From the IMG/VR virus record IMGVR_UViG_3300045988_005581: a stretch of 44,370 bases of DNA; one strand, 5' to 3'. Source of the stretch: a virus (Duplodnaviria > Heunggongvirae > Uroviricota > Caudoviricetes). Below are positions 7,481-44,370 of this stretch, piece after piece. Within the stretch, counting starts at the first letter, position 1. Each line of letters opens with the position of its first letter. Made by a program: the position numbers and the translations under genes. Below the pieces are notes generated by a model. That model had not been told where the DNA came from. It made no database searches and was given only the letters and a program-made list of their open reading frames with translations.

Positions 7481-7507
7481 TTTTCACCCCCTGCTTAAGT
7501 TAACTGA

Positions 7508-7536
7508 ATAGTACCCTATTATATTGGGGTGTGCAA
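7508..7536 (-). promoter_or_regulatory. sigma70-like promoter TTGCAC-N17-TACTAT (minus strand) with embedded dyad
   Basis: On the minus strand: TTGCAC (7531-7536), 17 bp, TACTAT (7508-7513); dyad AATAG-N4-CTATT at 7507-7520. About 25 bp upstream of the ATG at 7480. Confidence 0.5.
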
Positions 7537-14591: not shown

Positions 14592-14596
14592 AACTA

Positions 14597-14620
14597 AGGC
14601 CCCTTTCGGGGCCTTTTTCT
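14597..14620. terminator. bidirectional intrinsic terminator
   Basis: AGGCCCC (14597-14603) / GGGGCCT (14608-14614), loop TTTC, T-runs on both strands; separates the tail-shaft operon from the convergent minus-strand cassette. Confidence 0.7.
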
Positions 14621-15174
14621 TACAAACCTAATTTTAAAGCAATGTCTATAACGTTCGATTTAACGTCACCCGGTATGATGTAGGTGTCGTAATCTTTTAC
14701 ACCACTAACATCGTACAGATAGCCACGGCTATCGCAGATGAACGTATAGCCGTCACGATGGAGGCGGACGATTCGCACGTCATGCCCCGCGGCGACGATA
14801 GGGGCAACTTCACTGGCGAATCCACCATCGGACACTACAAAAACTTCGTCGCCGTCAGGCAAGTTTTCAGCAAGATACTTACCGAAATAATCATCGCCGA
14901 ATACCGGTTTAATGAATTGCTCAGAAATGGCAATCATTAACCGGCGGCGGGACAACCCATTAAGAAAACCCTCGGGTTTTTCTTTCCGCGCCCGGTCGTC
15001 GTAGCCGTCGAGAAATTCGTGGTAAGCATCCTGGCCTAACGCTGCCAAAGCAATATTGAACATTGGATTCTTGAAACTGGTAGTTCCTTTCGCAAAGCCC
15101 ATTTCTACCAGCGCCATAGCAAGCGTGTCTTTCCCGCAACCCGCAGGGCCATTAAGAATAATTACCTTAGCCAT
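14620..15174 (-). CDS. deoxynucleoside monophosphate kinase-like P-loop kinase
   Basis: P-loop GPAGCGKDT near the N-terminus; the GKDT variant and overall spacing resemble T4 gp1-type dNMP kinases (recalled, not aligned). 184 aa. Confidence 0.65.
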   Translation of the reverse strand: MAKVIILNGPAGCGKDTLAMALVEMGFAKGTTSFKNPMFNIALAALGQDAYHEFLDGYDDRARKEKPEGFLNGLSRRRLMIAISEQFIKPVFGDDYFGKYLAENLPDGDEVFVVSDGGFASEVAPIVAAGHDVRIVRLHRDGYTFICDSRGYLYDVSGVKDYDTYIIPGDVKSNVIDIALKLGL

Positions 15175-15662
15175 TATTTATCGCTCCCGTGTGGTTTTAA
15201 GTGTGTAGAGTTCCCGTTACAGTCGTATTCGGTAACTGCGTGTGCGGTTATGCCGAGGTCACGGAAATGCTTTATTACCGCTGGAGAGTCGTCGAACGCA
15301 CACAAGATTCTTTCCAGTCCGAAAGCACGCAACACCTCTTCTTTAATTACGATGTCTTTTCTGTTGTCGTGTTTGCTGCGCATGATTAGCGTGTCAAACC
15401 TAACGTTATTCTCTCGTAACCATTCGCGAGTCTCCTCCTCAGCGTCATCACTTCGCCCGGTAAGGATAATTATAGTAAGTCCGGAATGCCACAGTACGCT
15501 ACACAAATGGATATTGTCGTATATCGGAGCGTCATCTTTGCAGGCCATGTTAAATGGCTTCCACGCCCACGTTTCTCCGTAGTTATCTTTTGGTAACAGG
15601 TGTAAGCGATGGGTACCGTCAGCCAATGTCCCGTCTAAATCGAAAATTACAATATCTTTCAT
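15174..15662 (-). CDS. HAD-superfamily phosphatase
   Basis: N-terminal DLDGTL (HAD motif I, DxDxT); 162 aa; TAATG-coupled to the kinase gene. Confidence 0.7.
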   Translation of the reverse strand: MKDIVIFDLDGTLADGTHRLHLLPKDNYGETWAWKPFNMACKDDAPIYDNIHLCSVLWHSGLTIIILTGRSDDAEEETREWLRENNVRFDTLIMRSKHDNRKDIVIKEEVLRAFGLERILCAFDDSPAVIKHFRDLGITAHAVTEYDCNGNSTHLKPHGSDK

Positions 15663-16789
15663 CCCAGCATCTCCGGTGAAATAGTTAAACGTGCGACCTC
15701 GCCATATTCGGCGCTATAAGTAATTACATTTGCACTGCGGCCCGACATCCATCCGCCGCGAGAGGCGTAGGCGTCTTTAGCCGCTAAGGTGCGGTGTTGC
15801 TCAACAATCATGTTACGGCTTTCTACAATCTTCTGGTGGTGCAGATGGCCTACGTGGGCGTAGCTGTAAACACTCTCGCCGAACGCTTTACGGAACTTGG
15901 CAATCATAACCGGTTCGATAGCGTCGAATCGTGCTTTATGCCCGTGATGGAAGAACAGCGTCGTTTTGCCGTGTTGCACCATCTTGTAAACATCCGGCGA
16001 CGTATCGACGAACACGCGCGGCTCATTGTCGTACAGCGTACTGAACATCTCAGCCAACCAAATCATACCCGATTCGTCGTGATTCCCTTGCACGATAAGC
16101 AAGCGAACATTTTTATGCTTAACCAACGCCATATCAACGACACGGCGGACCATACGAATCATGTAACGGACCAGTTTCTGATAGCGCGTGTCAGCGTCAA
16201 GGACATGACCGCTTGCGGGCGTAACGGCATCAAGACTATCGAAGTGCGCTAAGTCGCCAAGAAGATTGATAACCCCAGTACCGGCATCCGGTGCTTTCTG
16301 GAATGCTGCATCGAACCAACGAGAGAACAGGTCTTCCGCAATCTTCATGTCCCAGTCGTCGCCGCTCTCGTCGGCCCAGGCCAGCATACCGAGATGGAAA
16401 TCGGATACAGTGTAAAGATTGAGCAGCTTATCGTCCCGTTTGGCACGAACGGCTTTAACAGGTGCAACGGGCGTAATCTCCGATTTCATGCCTTCGATCA
16501 CGGCTTTCATCAATTCAACCTGACGTTCGGCGTCAGTGTCGGTCTTAACCCATTGCAACTTAGTGTTGCCGAACTCATCCACCAGTGACGACGTTCCTTT
16601 AATCTTATAGCCGTCCGGGACAAGGTGGCTAACATCACGTCCGTGACCTACACCTTTCTTAGCCAGCTTCGCTTTACGGATACGAATTACGCGGTCTGAG
16701 ATGCCGTATTTACGGGCGATGTCTACATTCTTCATTCCGGCGTTCAATTCTTCCTGTAACTGTTCGTCGGTTATTTTCTTCCGGGCCAT
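15659..16789 (-). CDS. calcineurin-like metallophosphoesterase with N-terminal HTH-like domain
   Basis: Motifs SDFH, GDLAHFD, GNHDE, HHGH and GHLHH match metallophosphoesterase signatures; N-terminal NVDIARKYGISDRVIR is HTH-like. RBS GAGGAAG. Confidence 0.75.
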   Translation of the reverse strand: MARKKITDEQLQEELNAGMKNVDIARKYGISDRVIRIRKAKLAKKGVGHGRDVSHLVPDGYKIKGTSSLVDEFGNTKLQWVKTDTDAERQVELMKAVIEGMKSEITPVAPVKAVRAKRDDKLLNLYTVSDFHLGMLAWADESGDDWDMKIAEDLFSRWFDAAFQKAPDAGTGVINLLGDLAHFDSLDAVTPASGHVLDADTRYQKLVRYMIRMVRRVVDMALVKHKNVRLLIVQGNHDESGMIWLAEMFSTLYDNEPRVFVDTSPDVYKMVQHGKTTLFFHHGHKARFDAIEPVMIAKFRKAFGESVYSYAHVGHLHHQKIVESRNMIVEQHRTLAAKDAYASRGGWMSGRSANVITYSAEYGEVARLTISPEMLG

Positions 16790-16827: not shown

Positions 16828-17019
16828 CTACTTCTCTTTCACGTTCGAGTTACAAGCCCAGATTAAAATGAATACCCACGGCAACAGAACCCACCCGAGA
16901 AATAAGTTAGCCATGAATATCGCTAGCTTTGCTTTATGGTTTCGCATATGGGCCACAAAAAACGGGATAAAATAAACGCCTACAACAATAATTAAAAAGA
17001 ACATAGCGATACCGGTCAT
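16828..17019 (-). CDS. superinfection-immunity-like small membrane protein
   Basis: Two TM segments with YFIPFFVAHMRNH...LFLGWVLLPWVFILIWA, resembling the Imm_superinfect family signature from memory. ATG 17019 with AGGAG RBS (tool start 17046 upstream). Confidence 0.6.
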   Translation of the reverse strand: MTGIAMFFLIIVVGVYFIPFFVAHMRNHKAKLAIFMANLFLGWVLLPWVFILIWACNSNVKEK

Positions 17020-17061
17020 AACATAACTCCTGATTTGAGATAACATCGTTGGTGTAAGTGA

Positions 17062-17090
17062 ATAGTACGCTATTATATCAGGGTGTGCAA
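17062..17090 (-). promoter_or_regulatory. sigma70-like promoter TTGCAC-N17-TACTAT (minus strand) with embedded dyad
   Basis: TTGCAC = 17085-17090, TACTAT = 17062-17067 on the minus strand; dyad AATAG-N4-CTATT 17061-17074; near-identical to the element at 7505-7540. Confidence 0.5.
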
Positions 17091-17197
17091 GTAGTATGTT
17101 AGAATAATTTTGCGCCTAGTGTCGCACACGAAAAGCGGGTGGTTCCCGTCTGGCGCATTTCCTTTAACCAGTAACCTCTTAACCAAAGGATTAAAGA

Positions 17198-17614
17198 ATG
17201 AAACTTTCTGATTTTTATTACGAAGCTGAAGCTGAAAAGGGTGCACGTATGCCGATACCATTAAAAGACGGTACCGATTCCGGGGAATGGCTTAATGTTG
17301 TTTCTCCTGAGGCAGACGTTGCCGTTAAGGCTATGCGCGCGTTCACCCTTGCATACCGGGCAGTGTTAGGGAAATTAAAACCGCTTCGTGATAAGTGCGA
17401 AGAGATGAAAGATTTCTCTGAATACAACCTGAAGATGGAAGACGCGGCGACGGACCTTAACCGTCAGTTAGCGGTTGAATTGGTTAACGGGTGGAGCCTT
17501 GACGACGAATTCAATAAAGAGAATCTGAACACACTCCTGACGCAATATAAACGACTCGCGGAACTTGTTGTTGTGTTTCATAACGAACAACTGCACCAGC
17601 TACAGGAAAAGTAG
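17198..17614 (+). CDS. tail assembly chaperone (G-like)
   Basis: 138 aa immediately upstream of the tape-measure gene, RBS AAGGA; the -1 frame stays open through its 3' end. Confidence 0.6.
   Translation: MKLSDFYYEAEAEKGARMPIPLKDGTDSGEWLNVVSPEADVAVKAMRAFTLAYRAVLGKLKPLRDKCEEMKDFSEYNLKMEDAATDLNRQLAVELVNGWSLDDEFNKENLNTLLTQYKRLAELVVVFHNEQLHQLQEK
17605..17611 (+). promoter_or_regulatory. putative -1 programmed ribosomal frameshift site (G GAA AAG)
   Basis: Heptamer GGAAAAG ends one codon before the chaperone stop (TAG 17612-17614); the -1 frame is open from 17584 to 17979. Analogous to the lambda G/GT site GGGAAAG. Confidence 0.35.
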
Positions 17615-17619
17615 ACGCG

Positions 17620-17979
17620 TTGCTCCAGTTCGCCCGTTGGAACTTCATAACCCGCCACAAACGGCGGGAATTTGACAGTATCGCCGATGGGCATAAAGCC
17701 GCGCTAATTGCTATGGGGGTTATGCAAGACGCGCCGGACGCAACGCAGGCCACTGGGCCGGAATGCCCCCCTGAACTACTAACCACATTTGAGAAGTACA
17801 GGGAAATTAAATTCACCCGCCGAGTGGACGACGACGGCATCAAGATGTACCCGCGCGAGCAATTACGATGGTCAGATTTAGTGGCGTACAGCACCGTTTC
17901 AGGCCAGAATATAGGGATGTTCGAATCTGACATCATCATGAGCTTAGACGCTATTTTCGAGGGTAGAAACGATGGCTGA
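17620..17979 (+). CDS. tail assembly chaperone frameshift extension (T-like)
   Basis: ORF in the -1 frame relative to 17198..17614, no convincing independent start (tool start is TTG); ends overlapping the tape-measure start. Confidence 0.45.
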   Translation: MLQFARWNFITRHKRREFDSIADGHKAALIAMGVMQDAPDATQATGPECPPELLTTFEKYREIKFTRRVDDDGIKMYPREQLRWSDLVAYSTVSGQNIGMFESDIIMSLDAIFEGRNDG

Positions 17980-20311
17980 TGTAGCTAGTTTAGTCGTAAA
18001 AGTATCAGAGCAAGGCGCGAAAGCCACATCAGACCGTCTTGATAATCTTTCAAAGTCCGCAAAAGTAGCGGGGGCCGCCGTAGCAGGCCTCGCTTCTATC
18101 GTAGCGGCTACCGCGTATAAAGCCGCCCAAGAACTAGTTGACTCACAGCGGCAACTGGACAAGATGTCCGCCAGTTTGAAGACCTTAACCGGAAGTACCC
18201 AAGGTGCTAAACAGGCGCTAAGTATCCTGCAAGATTTTGCACGCGACACCCCATACGGACTGGAGCAGGCGGTGGAAGGCTTCCGTAAGCTGGTGGCCCT
18301 TGGCCTTACCCCATCCGAGGAGGCGTTGCGGTCCTACGGCAATACCGCATCGGCTATGGGTAAGGACCTTAATCAGATGATTGAGGCGGTAGCCGACGCC
18401 AGTACGTTTGAGTTCGAACGCCTCAAAGAATTCGGCATCAAAGCCAAGCAGAACAAAACCGACGTAGAGTTTACGTTCCAGGGAACGACAACCGTAGTTA
18501 AGAAAAGCGCTGCCGATATTGAGCAGTATTTACTTAACATTGGTAACGTAAATTTTGCGGGGGCTATGGCTGACCAGGCCAACACCCTTAACGGCGCTAT
18601 CGCGAGTGCCAGTGACTCATGGTCGCAGCTAAAAATGACGCTTGCCACCAGTCTTGATGTTGGCGCACTTGCTGAACCTATCAGGTATATCGATGACTTG
18701 ATTCAGGAATTAAACGCGTCTGTTGCTTCCGGTGAATTAGCCGCTGAAATGCAGATGTGGGGGAACATCGCGTCGGAAGTAGGAAGCGCTATCGAGATGT
18801 CATTCGACGCTGCGTTTGGCTTTGTTGGCGATGCCATCAACGGGCTTAATGAACTGTGGGATTTCAGCAGCAAGAGTATTACGGATAGCGGAGAACAAAC
18901 GGCTACTACCATCGCTGAATCCGCCGCCGATGCGCTTGACTTCATCGCGGAAGAGTTCACCGCGATGGAGAGATTCTTTGAAGATATGGTTAAAGGCGCG
19001 CAGGACGCGGGCCGTCTTGTACGAGCCGCTTTTACCCCCGGGGAATCAGTAGACGTAGCTAAAAATATCAACTTCCAGCTTGGCCTGGCTTTGGATACCC
19101 AGCGCGATGTCGCCGACGTTACGCGTAAAAGTTTCCGCGAACAGGTAGAAGCTCAACAGGATATTGTAGCGTTAAAACGCGCGGCGTATGACATCGATAA
19201 GGAGTCCGCAAAAGCTGAGGGGTTAAACAAATTTAAGGTAACCGGAACTGGCGGCGGTTCTGACGATGACGGGTCAGCCGCAAAAGCCGCTAAGAAAGCG
19301 GCGGACGCGTTCGAGCGCCAGAAAAAAGCGGCGGAAGACTTCTACTATCAGTCAATCCATCTTAATGATGACGTATTTCAGAAAATAGAAGCTAACCAGG
19401 AAGAGCAACTGTCTAAGTTGCAGGACTTCTATAGCAATAAGCTTCTTAGCGACCAACAGTACGAAAACGCCAAGACGCAGATTATGTTATCCGCGGAACA
19501 GGCCCGCCAGGAAGAACTGGATAAGAAAAGGAAGGAGGCCCAGGAGAATCGGCAGAAAGGCGAGGATTTCATGGCTCAGATTATGGGTCAGAACGCCACC
19601 GAGCTTGAGCTTCTGGATATTCAGGAACAGCAGAAACTGGCAGTAGCCGATAAGTACCGTGAACAGGGTCTTATTAGCGAGAAGCAGTATCAGGCCACGC
19701 TTAACGCCATCAACGAGCAGTACGCAACCAAGCGAGCCGATGCAACGGCAACCGCTTTCGGCAACATGGCGTCCAATATTGGGTCCGCGTTAGGGGAGGC
19801 ATCCGGGGCTTATAAGGCGTTCGCTATTGTACAGGCCACTATCGCTACGTACACTGCAGCTATTGAGGCGTACAAATCTACAGCGGCTATCCCGGTTGTC
19901 GGGCCGTTCCTCGCACCGGTAGCCGCTGCCGCTGCCGTTGGCGCAGGCATGGCGCAGGTTTCCGCTATCCGGTCTGCGCGAGAGCAGGGCGGTCAGTTAT
20001 CCGCAGGGCAGGCATCGACCATCGCAGAACGTGGTAAACCAGAAGTTATCATGCCGGCTGGCGCATCTCGTGTACGAACTGCGCAGCAGATGAAAGAAAT
20101 TATGGGGCAAAACGGGTCTTCTTCCGGCCCGTCTAATGTTACCATCGTAAACAACACGAGTTCTCAAATCGGCAACGTATCCACTGAACAGGATGATGAA
20201 GGCCGTCTACGCATCATCATAGAAGAGCAAGTTGCTGCATCTTTGCAGAACAGCAACAGTAAGATTAGCAAGGCCCGCAAGGCCACAAGAAATGCGCCGG
20301 GGTTCAAATAA
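17972..20311 (+). CDS. tail tape measure protein
   Basis: 779 aa, longest gene of the tail block, Ala/Gln/Glu-rich with coiled-coil character and a hydrophobic Gly/Ala-rich segment (AAIPVVGPFLAPVAAAAAVGAGMA). Confidence 0.8.
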   Translation: MADVASLVVKVSEQGAKATSDRLDNLSKSAKVAGAAVAGLASIVAATAYKAAQELVDSQRQLDKMSASLKTLTGSTQGAKQALSILQDFARDTPYGLEQAVEGFRKLVALGLTPSEEALRSYGNTASAMGKDLNQMIEAVADASTFEFERLKEFGIKAKQNKTDVEFTFQGTTTVVKKSAADIEQYLLNIGNVNFAGAMADQANTLNGAIASASDSWSQLKMTLATSLDVGALAEPIRYIDDLIQELNASVASGELAAEMQMWGNIASEVGSAIEMSFDAAFGFVGDAINGLNELWDFSSKSITDSGEQTATTIAESAADALDFIAEEFTAMERFFEDMVKGAQDAGRLVRAAFTPGESVDVAKNINFQLGLALDTQRDVADVTRKSFREQVEAQQDIVALKRAAYDIDKESAKAEGLNKFKVTGTGGGSDDDGSAAKAAKKAADAFERQKKAAEDFYYQSIHLNDDVFQKIEANQEEQLSKLQDFYSNKLLSDQQYENAKTQIMLSAEQARQEELDKKRKEAQENRQKGEDFMAQIMGQNATELELLDIQEQQKLAVADKYREQGLISEKQYQATLNAINEQYATKRADATATAFGNMASNIGSALGEASGAYKAFAIVQATIATYTAAIEAYKSTAAIPVVGPFLAPVAAAAAVGAGMAQVSAIRSAREQGGQLSAGQASTIAERGKPEVIMPAGASRVRTAQQMKEIMGQNGSSSGPSNVTIVNNTSSQIGNVSTEQDDEGRLRIIIEEQVAASLQNSNSKISKARKATRNAPGFK

Positions 20312-33505: not shown

Positions 33506-33534
33506 ACTATAATAGCTAACTATTCAGGTGTCAA
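33506..33534 (-). promoter_or_regulatory. sigma70-like promoter TTGACA-N17-TATAGT (minus strand) with embedded dyad
   Basis: On the minus strand: TTGACA = 33529-33534, TATAGT = 33506-33511; dyad AATAG-N4-CTATT 33511-33524. Confidence 0.55.
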
Positions 33535-36340: not shown

Positions 36341-36404
36341 TGGGCTTTTCTAAAATAATTAATATGGTACTATTCACATATCAACTGACTAAGGAGTAAT
36401 TGAC

Positions 36405-39390: not shown

Positions 39391-39603
39391 TTACTTAACG
39401 CCCGCAATCCACGCACGCTCCGAAGCGTAGAAACGACACTTACTTAAAGCCTCGATTGGCATCTTAATAATGCGTGTCGGTTCCAACAAATGATTAGGCT
39501 TACATATTTCCGCATAGAATCCGCTGTCAGTAATTTCCGGCGCAAACTTAAACCGGTATTTAACTTTACAGTTTTCAAAGTAACAACCCATACGCCCAAT
39601 CAT
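39391..39603 (-). CDS. hypothetical protein (70 aa)
   Basis: ORF-track ORF, ATGA-coupled to the upstream HTH gene. Confidence 0.5.
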   Translation of the reverse strand: MIGRMGCYFENCKVKYRFKFAPEITDSGFYAEICKPNHLLEPTRIIKMPIEALSKCRFYASERAWIAGVK

Positions 39604-39782
39604 TTCACGTTCTCCTTAATCCATGCTTCAACTTTATTACGGTCAAATGTTCCTGGTAAACGGCGACCCATAACCTTAATACAGCAATCAGGGAATTTAC
39701 CGCTGCGCAACCAGTTATTAATTGTTTGACGTGTCACCCCGATACGTTCAGCCACTTCATTCTGTGTCATGTAATGCTGCAT
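39600..39782 (-). CDS. AlpA-like HTH DNA-binding protein
   Basis: MTQNEVAERIGVTRQTINNWLRSGKFP resembles AlpA/excisionase-type HTH proteins; ATG 39782 with AGGAG RBS (tool start 39854 upstream). First gene of the leftward module. Confidence 0.6.
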   Translation of the reverse strand: MQHYMTQNEVAERIGVTRQTINNWLRSGKFPDCCIKVMGRRLPGTFDRNKVEAWIKENVK

Positions 39783-40198: not shown

Positions 40199-40227
40199 TC
40201 GCACACCCCAACATAATAGGATACTAT
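40199..40227 (+). promoter_or_regulatory. sigma70-like promoter TCGCAC-N17-TACTAT with embedded dyad
   Basis: TCGCAC 40199-40204, TACTAT 40222-40227; dyad AATAG-N4-CTATT 40215-40228; same element as 7505-7540 in reverse orientation. Confidence 0.5.
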
Positions 40228-40261
40228 TCACTTATCGGAACGAGACAGAGGAGTGATGGTT

Positions 40262-41333: not shown

Positions 41334-41362
41334 TTGCACACTGGGATAGAATAGACTACTAT
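41334..41362 (+). promoter_or_regulatory. sigma70-like promoter TTGCAC-N17-TACTAT with embedded dyad
   Basis: TTGCAC 41334-41339, TACTAT 41357-41362; perfect dyad GAATAG-N4-CTATTC at 41349-41364. Confidence 0.55.
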
Positions 41363-41392
41363 TCATTTACACAGACGGGAGGAGAGACAGAG

Positions 41393-44230: not shown

Positions 44231-44260
44231 CCCGGCCCTGACCCAGCCGGGATTTTTTTT
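44231..44260 (+). terminator. strong intrinsic terminator after the lysis cassette
   Basis: CCCGGC (44231-44236) / GCCGGG (44246-44251), 9-nt loop, then eight consecutive T (44253-44260). Confidence 0.75.
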
Positions 44261-44370
44261 ATCTATTTTCTGTGATGACTAGTTGACTATTATCCTCGAC
44301 CCTATTATATTTACTTCATCGACAACGAGAACGGAGTAGAGAGAAATGGGCAACGTATCGACGATAGAAA
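44252..44370. repeat. Terminal duplication (copy 2), identical to 1..119
   Basis: Exact repeat of the window start, including the promoter at 32..60 and the first 25 nt of the first ORF. Confidence 0.9.

Follow-up and report, generated by a model that had tools for sequence, protein, structure and literature searches.

An Imm-family membrane protein encoded beside the tail genes of a virulent Kagunavirus

The stretch of viral DNA analysed here (the window, 44,370 nucleotides) is the genome of a Kagunavirus (Guernseyvirinae), a group of virulent E. coli and Salmonella phages, and encodes a small inner-membrane protein of the T4 Imm family that probably blocks genome entry by later related phages, perhaps by binding to the tape measure protein (TMP). 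The gene, imm, is an already annotated core gene of a well-sampled subfamily, and its detection is correct but ordinary; the gene call itself adds nothing new, as relatives are already annotated in the same way. New here are the invariance of Imm residues 26-63 and the co-inheritance of alleles of the N-terminal helix with alleles of the tail assembly chaperone (TAC) and of the TMP. The gene and its ribosome-binding site are located as follows.

16828..17019, minus strand: imm coding sequence, 63-aa T4 Imm-family (PF14373) inner-membrane protein
17027..17030, minus strand: Shine-Dalgarno sequence GGAG of imm, 7 nt 5' of the ATG, read from the sequence

The imm gene, its product and its genome

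The imm reading frame starts at ATG 17019-17017 and stops at TAG 16830-16828, exactly the limits given by an earlier reading of the DNA that used no database searches (the sequence-only reading), and the product, MTGIAMFFLIIVVGVYFIPFFVAHMRNHKAKLAIFMANLFLGWVLLPWVFILIWACNSNVKEK, contains all elements of the motif YFIP..H..GW..W..WA quoted there. A purine-rich, Shine-Dalgarno-like site also precedes the equivalent ATG in the type-B alleles described below and in Jerseyvirus alleles. A 72-aa form starting at ATG 17046 was rejected, as it is not preceded by a Shine-Dalgarno sequence and the ATG proximal to that sequence is the one kept in relatives; the resulting 192-nt form is also the annotation in GenBank relatives.

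From this motif, membership in the superinfection-immunity family had been proposed, with a PF14373 (Imm_superinfect) scan as the means of checking it. The scan bears the proposal out, with 51.3 bits against a gathering score of 27.9 (E 1.1e-13) and with model positions 1-42 of 42 covered; T4 Imm scores 58.2 bits on the same profile. The product also matches PHROG 1039, 'immunity to superinfection' (E 7.5e-23). Aligned by BLASTP with T4 Imm, it shows 33% identity over 61 residues (E 2e-12), the sequences for this comparison having been extracted from the T4 genome record and from annotated RB3, and tblastn with the window protein reaches the imm loci of T4, T2 and RB3. A match to DUF3302 (PF11742) was not accepted as membership, since its 25.4 bits fall below the cut-off of 32 and it overlaps the PF14373 region. 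PADLOC models gave no match for Imm or the three proteins encoded downstream, and NCBIfam gave none for Imm.

An exhaustive HMMER search returned 6,337 representative clusters at E <= 1e-3; the distant homologues are mostly unannotated, and cluster look-ups yield almost no names. A tblastn search detects homologues across 1,494 phage records, among them those of Guernseyvirinae, of T4-like phages from many hosts, of Acinetobacter phages and of N4-like podoviruses. When 104 short homologues are aligned, P19 and W48 are invariant, while Y16, F17, A23, R26, H28, I34, N38, G42, W43 and W54 are conserved in at least 90% of the sequences. R26 and W43 align by BLASTP with R33 and W50 of T4 Imm, and in T4 the substitutions R33A and W50A reduce exclusion (preprint, bioRxiv 10.64898/2026.03.06.709160). 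Judged by these sequence comparisons, the window protein is a true relative of T4 Imm, which keeps a second phage from delivering DNA into a cell that is infected already.

The AlphaFold2 model built on the alignment of 104 homologues (pLDDT 97.1, pTM 0.80) contains helices at residues 3-16, 18-25, 31-41 and 45-55, with residues 28 and 60 linked by a bridge. The top Foldseek matches in BFVD are all models of a 'superinfection immunity protein', with TM-scores of 0.66-0.78, and a sequence profile search of the PDB found no relative. The sequence-only reading had described a protein with two transmembrane segments. Hydropathy agrees as far as two hydrophobic stretches are concerned (about 3-23 and 32-56, with the basic loop HMRNHKAK between them), but the four short helices of the model, whose topology was inferred from its DSSP string, suggest one membrane span plus a re-entrant helical hairpin and not two straight spans. 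In such an arrangement the N-terminal helix would cross the membrane with its N-terminus in the periplasm, as cited for T4, the basic loop (R26-K31) and the C-terminal tail would lie on the cytoplasmic side, and the G42-W43 loop would form the tip of the re-entrant hairpin.

Positions 1-119 of the window are identical to 44252-44370, this being the overlap left by a circular or terminally redundant assembly; the window thus represents a complete, circularly assembled genome with a unique length of 44,251 bp. Over the 6-kb neighbourhood of imm, identity amounts to 97.5% with Escherichia phages BEU33 and BEU35 and to 94-95% with Golestan, phiEc4 and SHAK7858. The N-terminal helix allele of Imm, 'type A', is identical to that of BEU33 and of two IMG/VR contigs. 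One related deposit, GenBank OR594183.1 (loci L001/L003), is filed as Autographiviridae; Kayfunavirus under a 'vB_EcoM' name; this taxonomy line is probably a deposit error, since the genome is collinear with, and 95% identical to, Kagunavirus siphoviruses.

The absence of an integrase, remarked upon in the sequence-only reading, holds for the annotated 95%-identical relative as well, which encodes neither integrase nor repressor. Papers on fBC-Eco01 and on Jerseyviruses likewise report no lysogeny genes, and megablast of the imm-phosphoesterase region against 5,426 complete E. coli genomes found nothing. A virulent lifestyle of the window phage is supported, and an understanding of 'immunity' in the sense of a prophage repressor was considered and rejected. 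T4, the founding case of the Imm family, is itself virulent, so that an 'immunity' gene in a virulent phage is no paradox. GenBank relatives label imm 'superinfection immunity protein' or 'putative immunity protein'. One paper (PMC8425127) states that all Jerseyvirus phages carry imm, as a core gene, yet stay lytic, and calls the mechanism of Imm unknown; other genome papers name the gene in passing, with guessed roles in 'gene regulation' or 'cell lysis'; in the literature on Guernseyvirinae, no functional test of imm was found.

Alleles of the N-terminal helix and a possible mode of exclusion

Divergently from imm, two tail genes are encoded on the opposite strand.

17198..17614, plus strand: tail assembly chaperone gene (TAC; PF08748), divergent from imm
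17972..20311, plus strand: tape measure protein gene (TMP; 779 aa; so annotated in relatives), with a hydrophobic segment at about residues 636-666

This arrangement was compared across 36 related loci from IMG/VR, all of which share a fixed synteny with TMP and TAC on one strand and imm followed by the phosphoesterase gene on the other. No two of the loci are at least 99% identical over 8 kb, and the phosphoesterase gene is uniform across them. Imm alleles differ almost only in residues 1-25. Type A begins with MTGI(A/T)MFFLII..., type B with MSSLPVSLILFALL..., and Jerseyviruses have a third N-terminal form. Residues 26-63, in turn, do not differ between types A and B, although synonymous divergence is nearly saturated: comparison of the window with the type-B Kagunavirus allele of locus L019 gives 15 synonymous and 0 non-synonymous differences in codons 26-63, and purifying selection on the imm reading frame is very strong. 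To explain types A and B by a recombination breakpoint inside imm was rejected because of these 15 synonymous sites in the core, which indicate an old divergence with a frozen protein sequence and not a recent exchange. The variable 5' patch of imm extends over about 17090-16950; the flank on the TAC side (17100-17220) is conserved, with 93-98% identity.

The TMP is a mosaic (L006-L029), in which residues 1-80 and 161-520 occur as two alleles that are only 10-58% identical, whereas residues 521-779, within which the hydrophobic segment lies, show 92-100% identity and assort independently of the N-terminal part; TMP(200-480) and TMP(521-779) are uncorrelated (adjusted Rand index -0.05, p 0.65). 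The N-terminal alleles of Imm follow those of TAC and TMP(1-480), with 9 A/A and 14 B/B combinations and two recombinants, L014 and L017 (table 9/1/1/14; Fisher p 4.6e-5), while other blocks nearby are shuffled. Among GenBank genomes, 10/10 phages with the type-A patch have a type-A TMP, and two phages with a type-A TMP are without the patch. The TAC and Imm genes are also among the nine genes that separate K1 phage P from phages G and L (PMC5582158).

Co-inheritance of these alleles fits a functional coupling of Imm with the TAC/TMP module; the co-segregation could also be plain linkage over about 120-180 nt of conserved DNA. It may be hypothesized, though with considerable doubt, that imm, TAC and TMP form a co-adapted 'entry/exclusion' module in which the invariant Imm core (R26 and the W43 loop) reads the conserved hydrophobic C-terminal part of the TMP and the fast-evolving N-terminal helix tunes specificity towards the variable TAC/TMP(1-480) allele. 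If this were true, the TMP-binding mechanism of T4 would extend to siphoviruses with unrelated TMPs, and the recombinants L014, L017, EcoPhCCP1 and SHAK7693 would be expected to escape exclusion by their relatives or to fail to exclude them.

In the probable case that Imm acts against later related phages, the virulent phage would make the protein during its own lytic cycle, and the genomes of late-adsorbing relatives would be kept from the cytoplasm. Imm would bind the membrane-inserting part of the incoming TMP, as reported for T4 Imm and gp29; a TMP bound in this way could not open a channel through the inner membrane, and the DNA would stay outside. In T4, Imm co-purifies with a fragment of gp29, the TMP, and a cryo-EM structure of the complex has been obtained (bioRxiv 10.64898/2026.03.06.709160). 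For the window Imm, binding of the TMP is putative. A BLASTP comparison of the window TMP with the T4-type gp29 of RB3 detected no similarity (best E 0.26), which makes the transfer of the T4 binding mechanism an analogy only; this lowers the claim of the same interface, not that of the same kind of mechanism.

The TMP-contacting residues of T4 Imm lie in the core of the protein, and in the phages compared here this core does not vary, even where the TMPs share only 55-60% identity. It follows that the core cannot encode allele specificity and that the co-segregation of types A and B cannot involve the T4-type contact residues. Since Kagunaviruses have an almost identical Imm core and likewise an almost identical hydrophobic C-terminal third of the TMP, cross-exclusion within the group is predicted.

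The same invariance of the core across divergent TMP alleles may also be read as a sign that Imm is an exclusion protein with a target other than its own type of TMP, altering a host inner-membrane component or excluding unrelated phages. Family members are found in phages whose tails are unrelated, among them N4-like podoviruses (Moo19, Schitoviridae), which have no TMP; these homologues and the size of the family (6,337 clusters), most of it unannotated, make a host-factor target or heterologous exclusion an alternative that is unlikely and nevertheless live, and the unrelatedness of the window TMP to gp29 in sequence also speaks for it. Against this alternative stands T4 Imm, the sole family member whose mechanism has been solved, which binds the TMP of its own phage. 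In the loci compared here, alleles of the variable Imm helix are inherited together with those of TAC and TMP, and the last, hydrophobic third of the TMP is as conserved a part as the Imm core.

Transcription unit and the imm-TAC intergenic region

The predicted transcription unit of imm comprises the following elements.

17062..17090, minus strand: predicted sigma-70-type promoter of imm, -35 TTGCAC at 17090-17085, N17, -10 TACTAT at 17067-17062
15659..16789, minus strand: downstream gene 1, 376 aa, N-terminal HTH and calcineurin-like phosphoesterase region
15174..15662, minus strand: downstream gene 2, HAD-type PNKP 3'-phosphatase, 162 aa (PF25109 HAD_PNKP, 73.1 bits)
14620..15174, minus strand: downstream gene 3, P-loop kinase, 184 aa, weak AAA_18 match; dNMP kinase in relatives
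14596..14615, both strands: bidirectional intrinsic terminator, 8-bp stem (6 GC pairs), T-run on each strand

A dedicated promoter had been claimed for imm, and conservation agrees with this: TTGCAC-N17-TACTAT is kept in all Kagunavirus loci, and Jerseyviruses have TTGCAT-N17-TATTAT in the same place. Its function as a promoter is predicted. A standard sigma-70 scan found no promoter 5' of imm, as the -35 element matches at only 3/6 positions, and the site emerged through the analysis of repeated motifs. A 37-nt element, conserved from the -35 to about +1, is present in four copies, of which this site is one; an operator-like, quasi-palindromic core, AATAG-N4-CTATT, overlaps the spacer and the -10 of the site. 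A perfect extended -10 (TGaTATAAT, 17080-17072) was rejected as the imm promoter because neither the other copies nor the relatives retain it.

The inverted repeat AATAG-N4-CTATT is the core of a 20-nt motif, TGAATAGTAnnCTATTATnT, which occurs 9 times in the window against 0.02 expected.

Copies 1-5: 25-44, 7505-7524, 17059-17078, 33507-33526, 36313-36332
Copies 6-9: 36357-36376, 40211-40230, 41346-41365, 44276-44295

Two promoter classes are built around it. The first has TTGACA-N17-TATAGT and lies 5' of replication genes; the second is the 37-nt element with TTGCAC-N17-TACTAT on the opposite strand, which at 17059-17078 points into imm. The same consensus was reported as 'phage RNA polymerase promoters' in the fBC-Eco01 paper, and no phage RNA polymerase gene is annotated in the annotated relative. 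The motif copies resemble host sigma-70 promoters with a common operator at which a phage regulator would act.

Between imm and TAC, on the strand of the tail genes and about 25 nt 5' of the TAC start codon, lies a full-model match to the int-alpA RNA (Rfam RF02996) at 17109-17173 (+), which scores 36.6 bits against a gathering score of 35.8 and reaches E 3.2e-6 in a local search. The site is the most conserved intergenic part across Kagunavirus and Jerseyvirus; its outer stem is followed by a U-rich tract and looks like a leader terminator, and it overlaps a minus-strand 37-aa 'hypothetical protein' of relatives that is probably spurious. The int-alpA motif is normally tied to the int/alpA regions of prophage-like islands, so that its occurrence in a virulent phage is unexpected. 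At 39600-39782 (-), the window also encodes a 60-aa HTH_17 protein (excisionase/AlpA-like; PF12728, 35.1 bits against a cut-off of 27), whose gene is called 'excisionase and transcriptional regulator' in a relative, in a phage without an integrase. The protein and the RNA motif together suggest an AlpA-type regulator, possibly an antiterminator, that might act on the leader of the tail genes.

Co-transcription of imm with a nucleotide-processing cassette, likewise proposed in the sequence-only reading, is plausible, as the 38-nt gap behind imm holds no terminator-like site and the downstream genes abut or overlap; the terminator at 14596-14615 closes this minus-strand unit. The HTH-phosphoesterase gene, called 'DNA repair exonuclease' in relatives and giving weak Pfam Metallophos matches below threshold, adjoins imm in 36/36 related loci. 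The HAD phosphatase and kinase genes are accessory, being detected in 12/36, and side by side the PNKP-type phosphatase and the P-loop kinase resemble a split T4 Pnkp. T4 imm is expressed early in infection. The single RNA-seq study of a Kagunavirus places imm in the latest-peaking class, which is weak evidence, since sampling ran to 120 min and the time points thus extend far beyond the latent period of 30 min.

Transcription with nucleotide-processing genes instead of early host-takeover genes, the late class in that one RNA-seq study and the lysis role guessed in one paper could be taken to mean that this PF14373 member serves mainly another purpose than exclusion, such as modulation of the membrane or of lysis timing or the support of the phosphoesterase, PNKP and kinase genes. 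Such a role is quite improbable given that the residues needed for T4 exclusion are conserved, that many relatives keep imm without the HAD and kinase genes, and that holins, endolysin and spanins are encoded elsewhere. A class II holin with two spans was rejected separately, there being no holin family among the Pfam matches and imm lying outside the lysis cassette. Finally, the notion that imm is a chance ORF or a wrong gene call within a divergent promoter region, which the short (63 aa), hydrophobic and AT-rich character of imm and the probably spurious 37-aa ORF called by annotators in the same region might invite, has practically no chance of being correct, as it is refuted by the purely synonymous divergence in the imm frame together with the profile match (E 1.1e-13) and is also contradicted by the AlphaFold2 pLDDT of 97 and by the conserved Shine-Dalgarno sequence and start codon.

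Significance and comparison with known systems

Phage cocktails for therapy and biocontrol make use of Kagunaviruses and Jerseyviruses; given a conserved exclusion protein whose core is invariant, members of the subfamily combined in one cocktail are predicted to exclude one another. With the imm gene described here, the generality of the Imm-TMP mechanism of T4 could also be examined in a simple siphovirus system, for which the two N-terminal helix alleles and the natural Imm/TMP recombinants would be ready-made specificity tests.

The closest counterparts are the imm orthologues of other Guernseyvirinae, which share 68-100% identity with the window gene as well as its position, orientation, promoter and annotation. 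They are annotated in the Kagunaviruses Golestan, fBC-Eco01, SHAK7858 and 22664BS2 and in the Jerseyviruses SE2/SETP3-like and vB_SenS-Ent2 (gp24), and nothing essential distinguishes them from the window imm.

T4 Imm, the founding member of PF14373 (83 aa; UniProt P08986 according to the preprint), shares with the window Imm the conserved positions Y/P/A/R/W/W/W and the order of its hydrophobic parts, an N-terminal helix first and a conserved core after it, and both genes are carried by virulent phages. The window protein is 20 residues shorter, having a shorter N-terminus and lacking the C-terminal tail of about 20 residues found in T4, and stands nearer to the family consensus in that it has H28, N38 and G42. 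The genomic settings differ as well: T4 imm lies between genes 42 and 43, whereas the window gene adjoins the tail chaperone and TMP genes, and T4 is a myovirus, whereas the window phage is a siphovirus, and its TMP has no sequence relationship to gp29.

A further parallel is HK97 gp15, a prophage inner-membrane exclusion protein acting on the TMP, as it is cited in the T4 preprint. The action proposed for it and for the window Imm is the same, namely that of a small inner-membrane protein that would block the TMP-dependent translocation of a siphovirus genome; gp15 is expressed from a prophage, whereas the window imm belongs to a virulent phage, and no homology between the two is claimed. The analogy drawn in the preprint, that of a small membrane protein neutralising an incoming pore-forming helical domain in the inner membrane, describes a functional likeness only.
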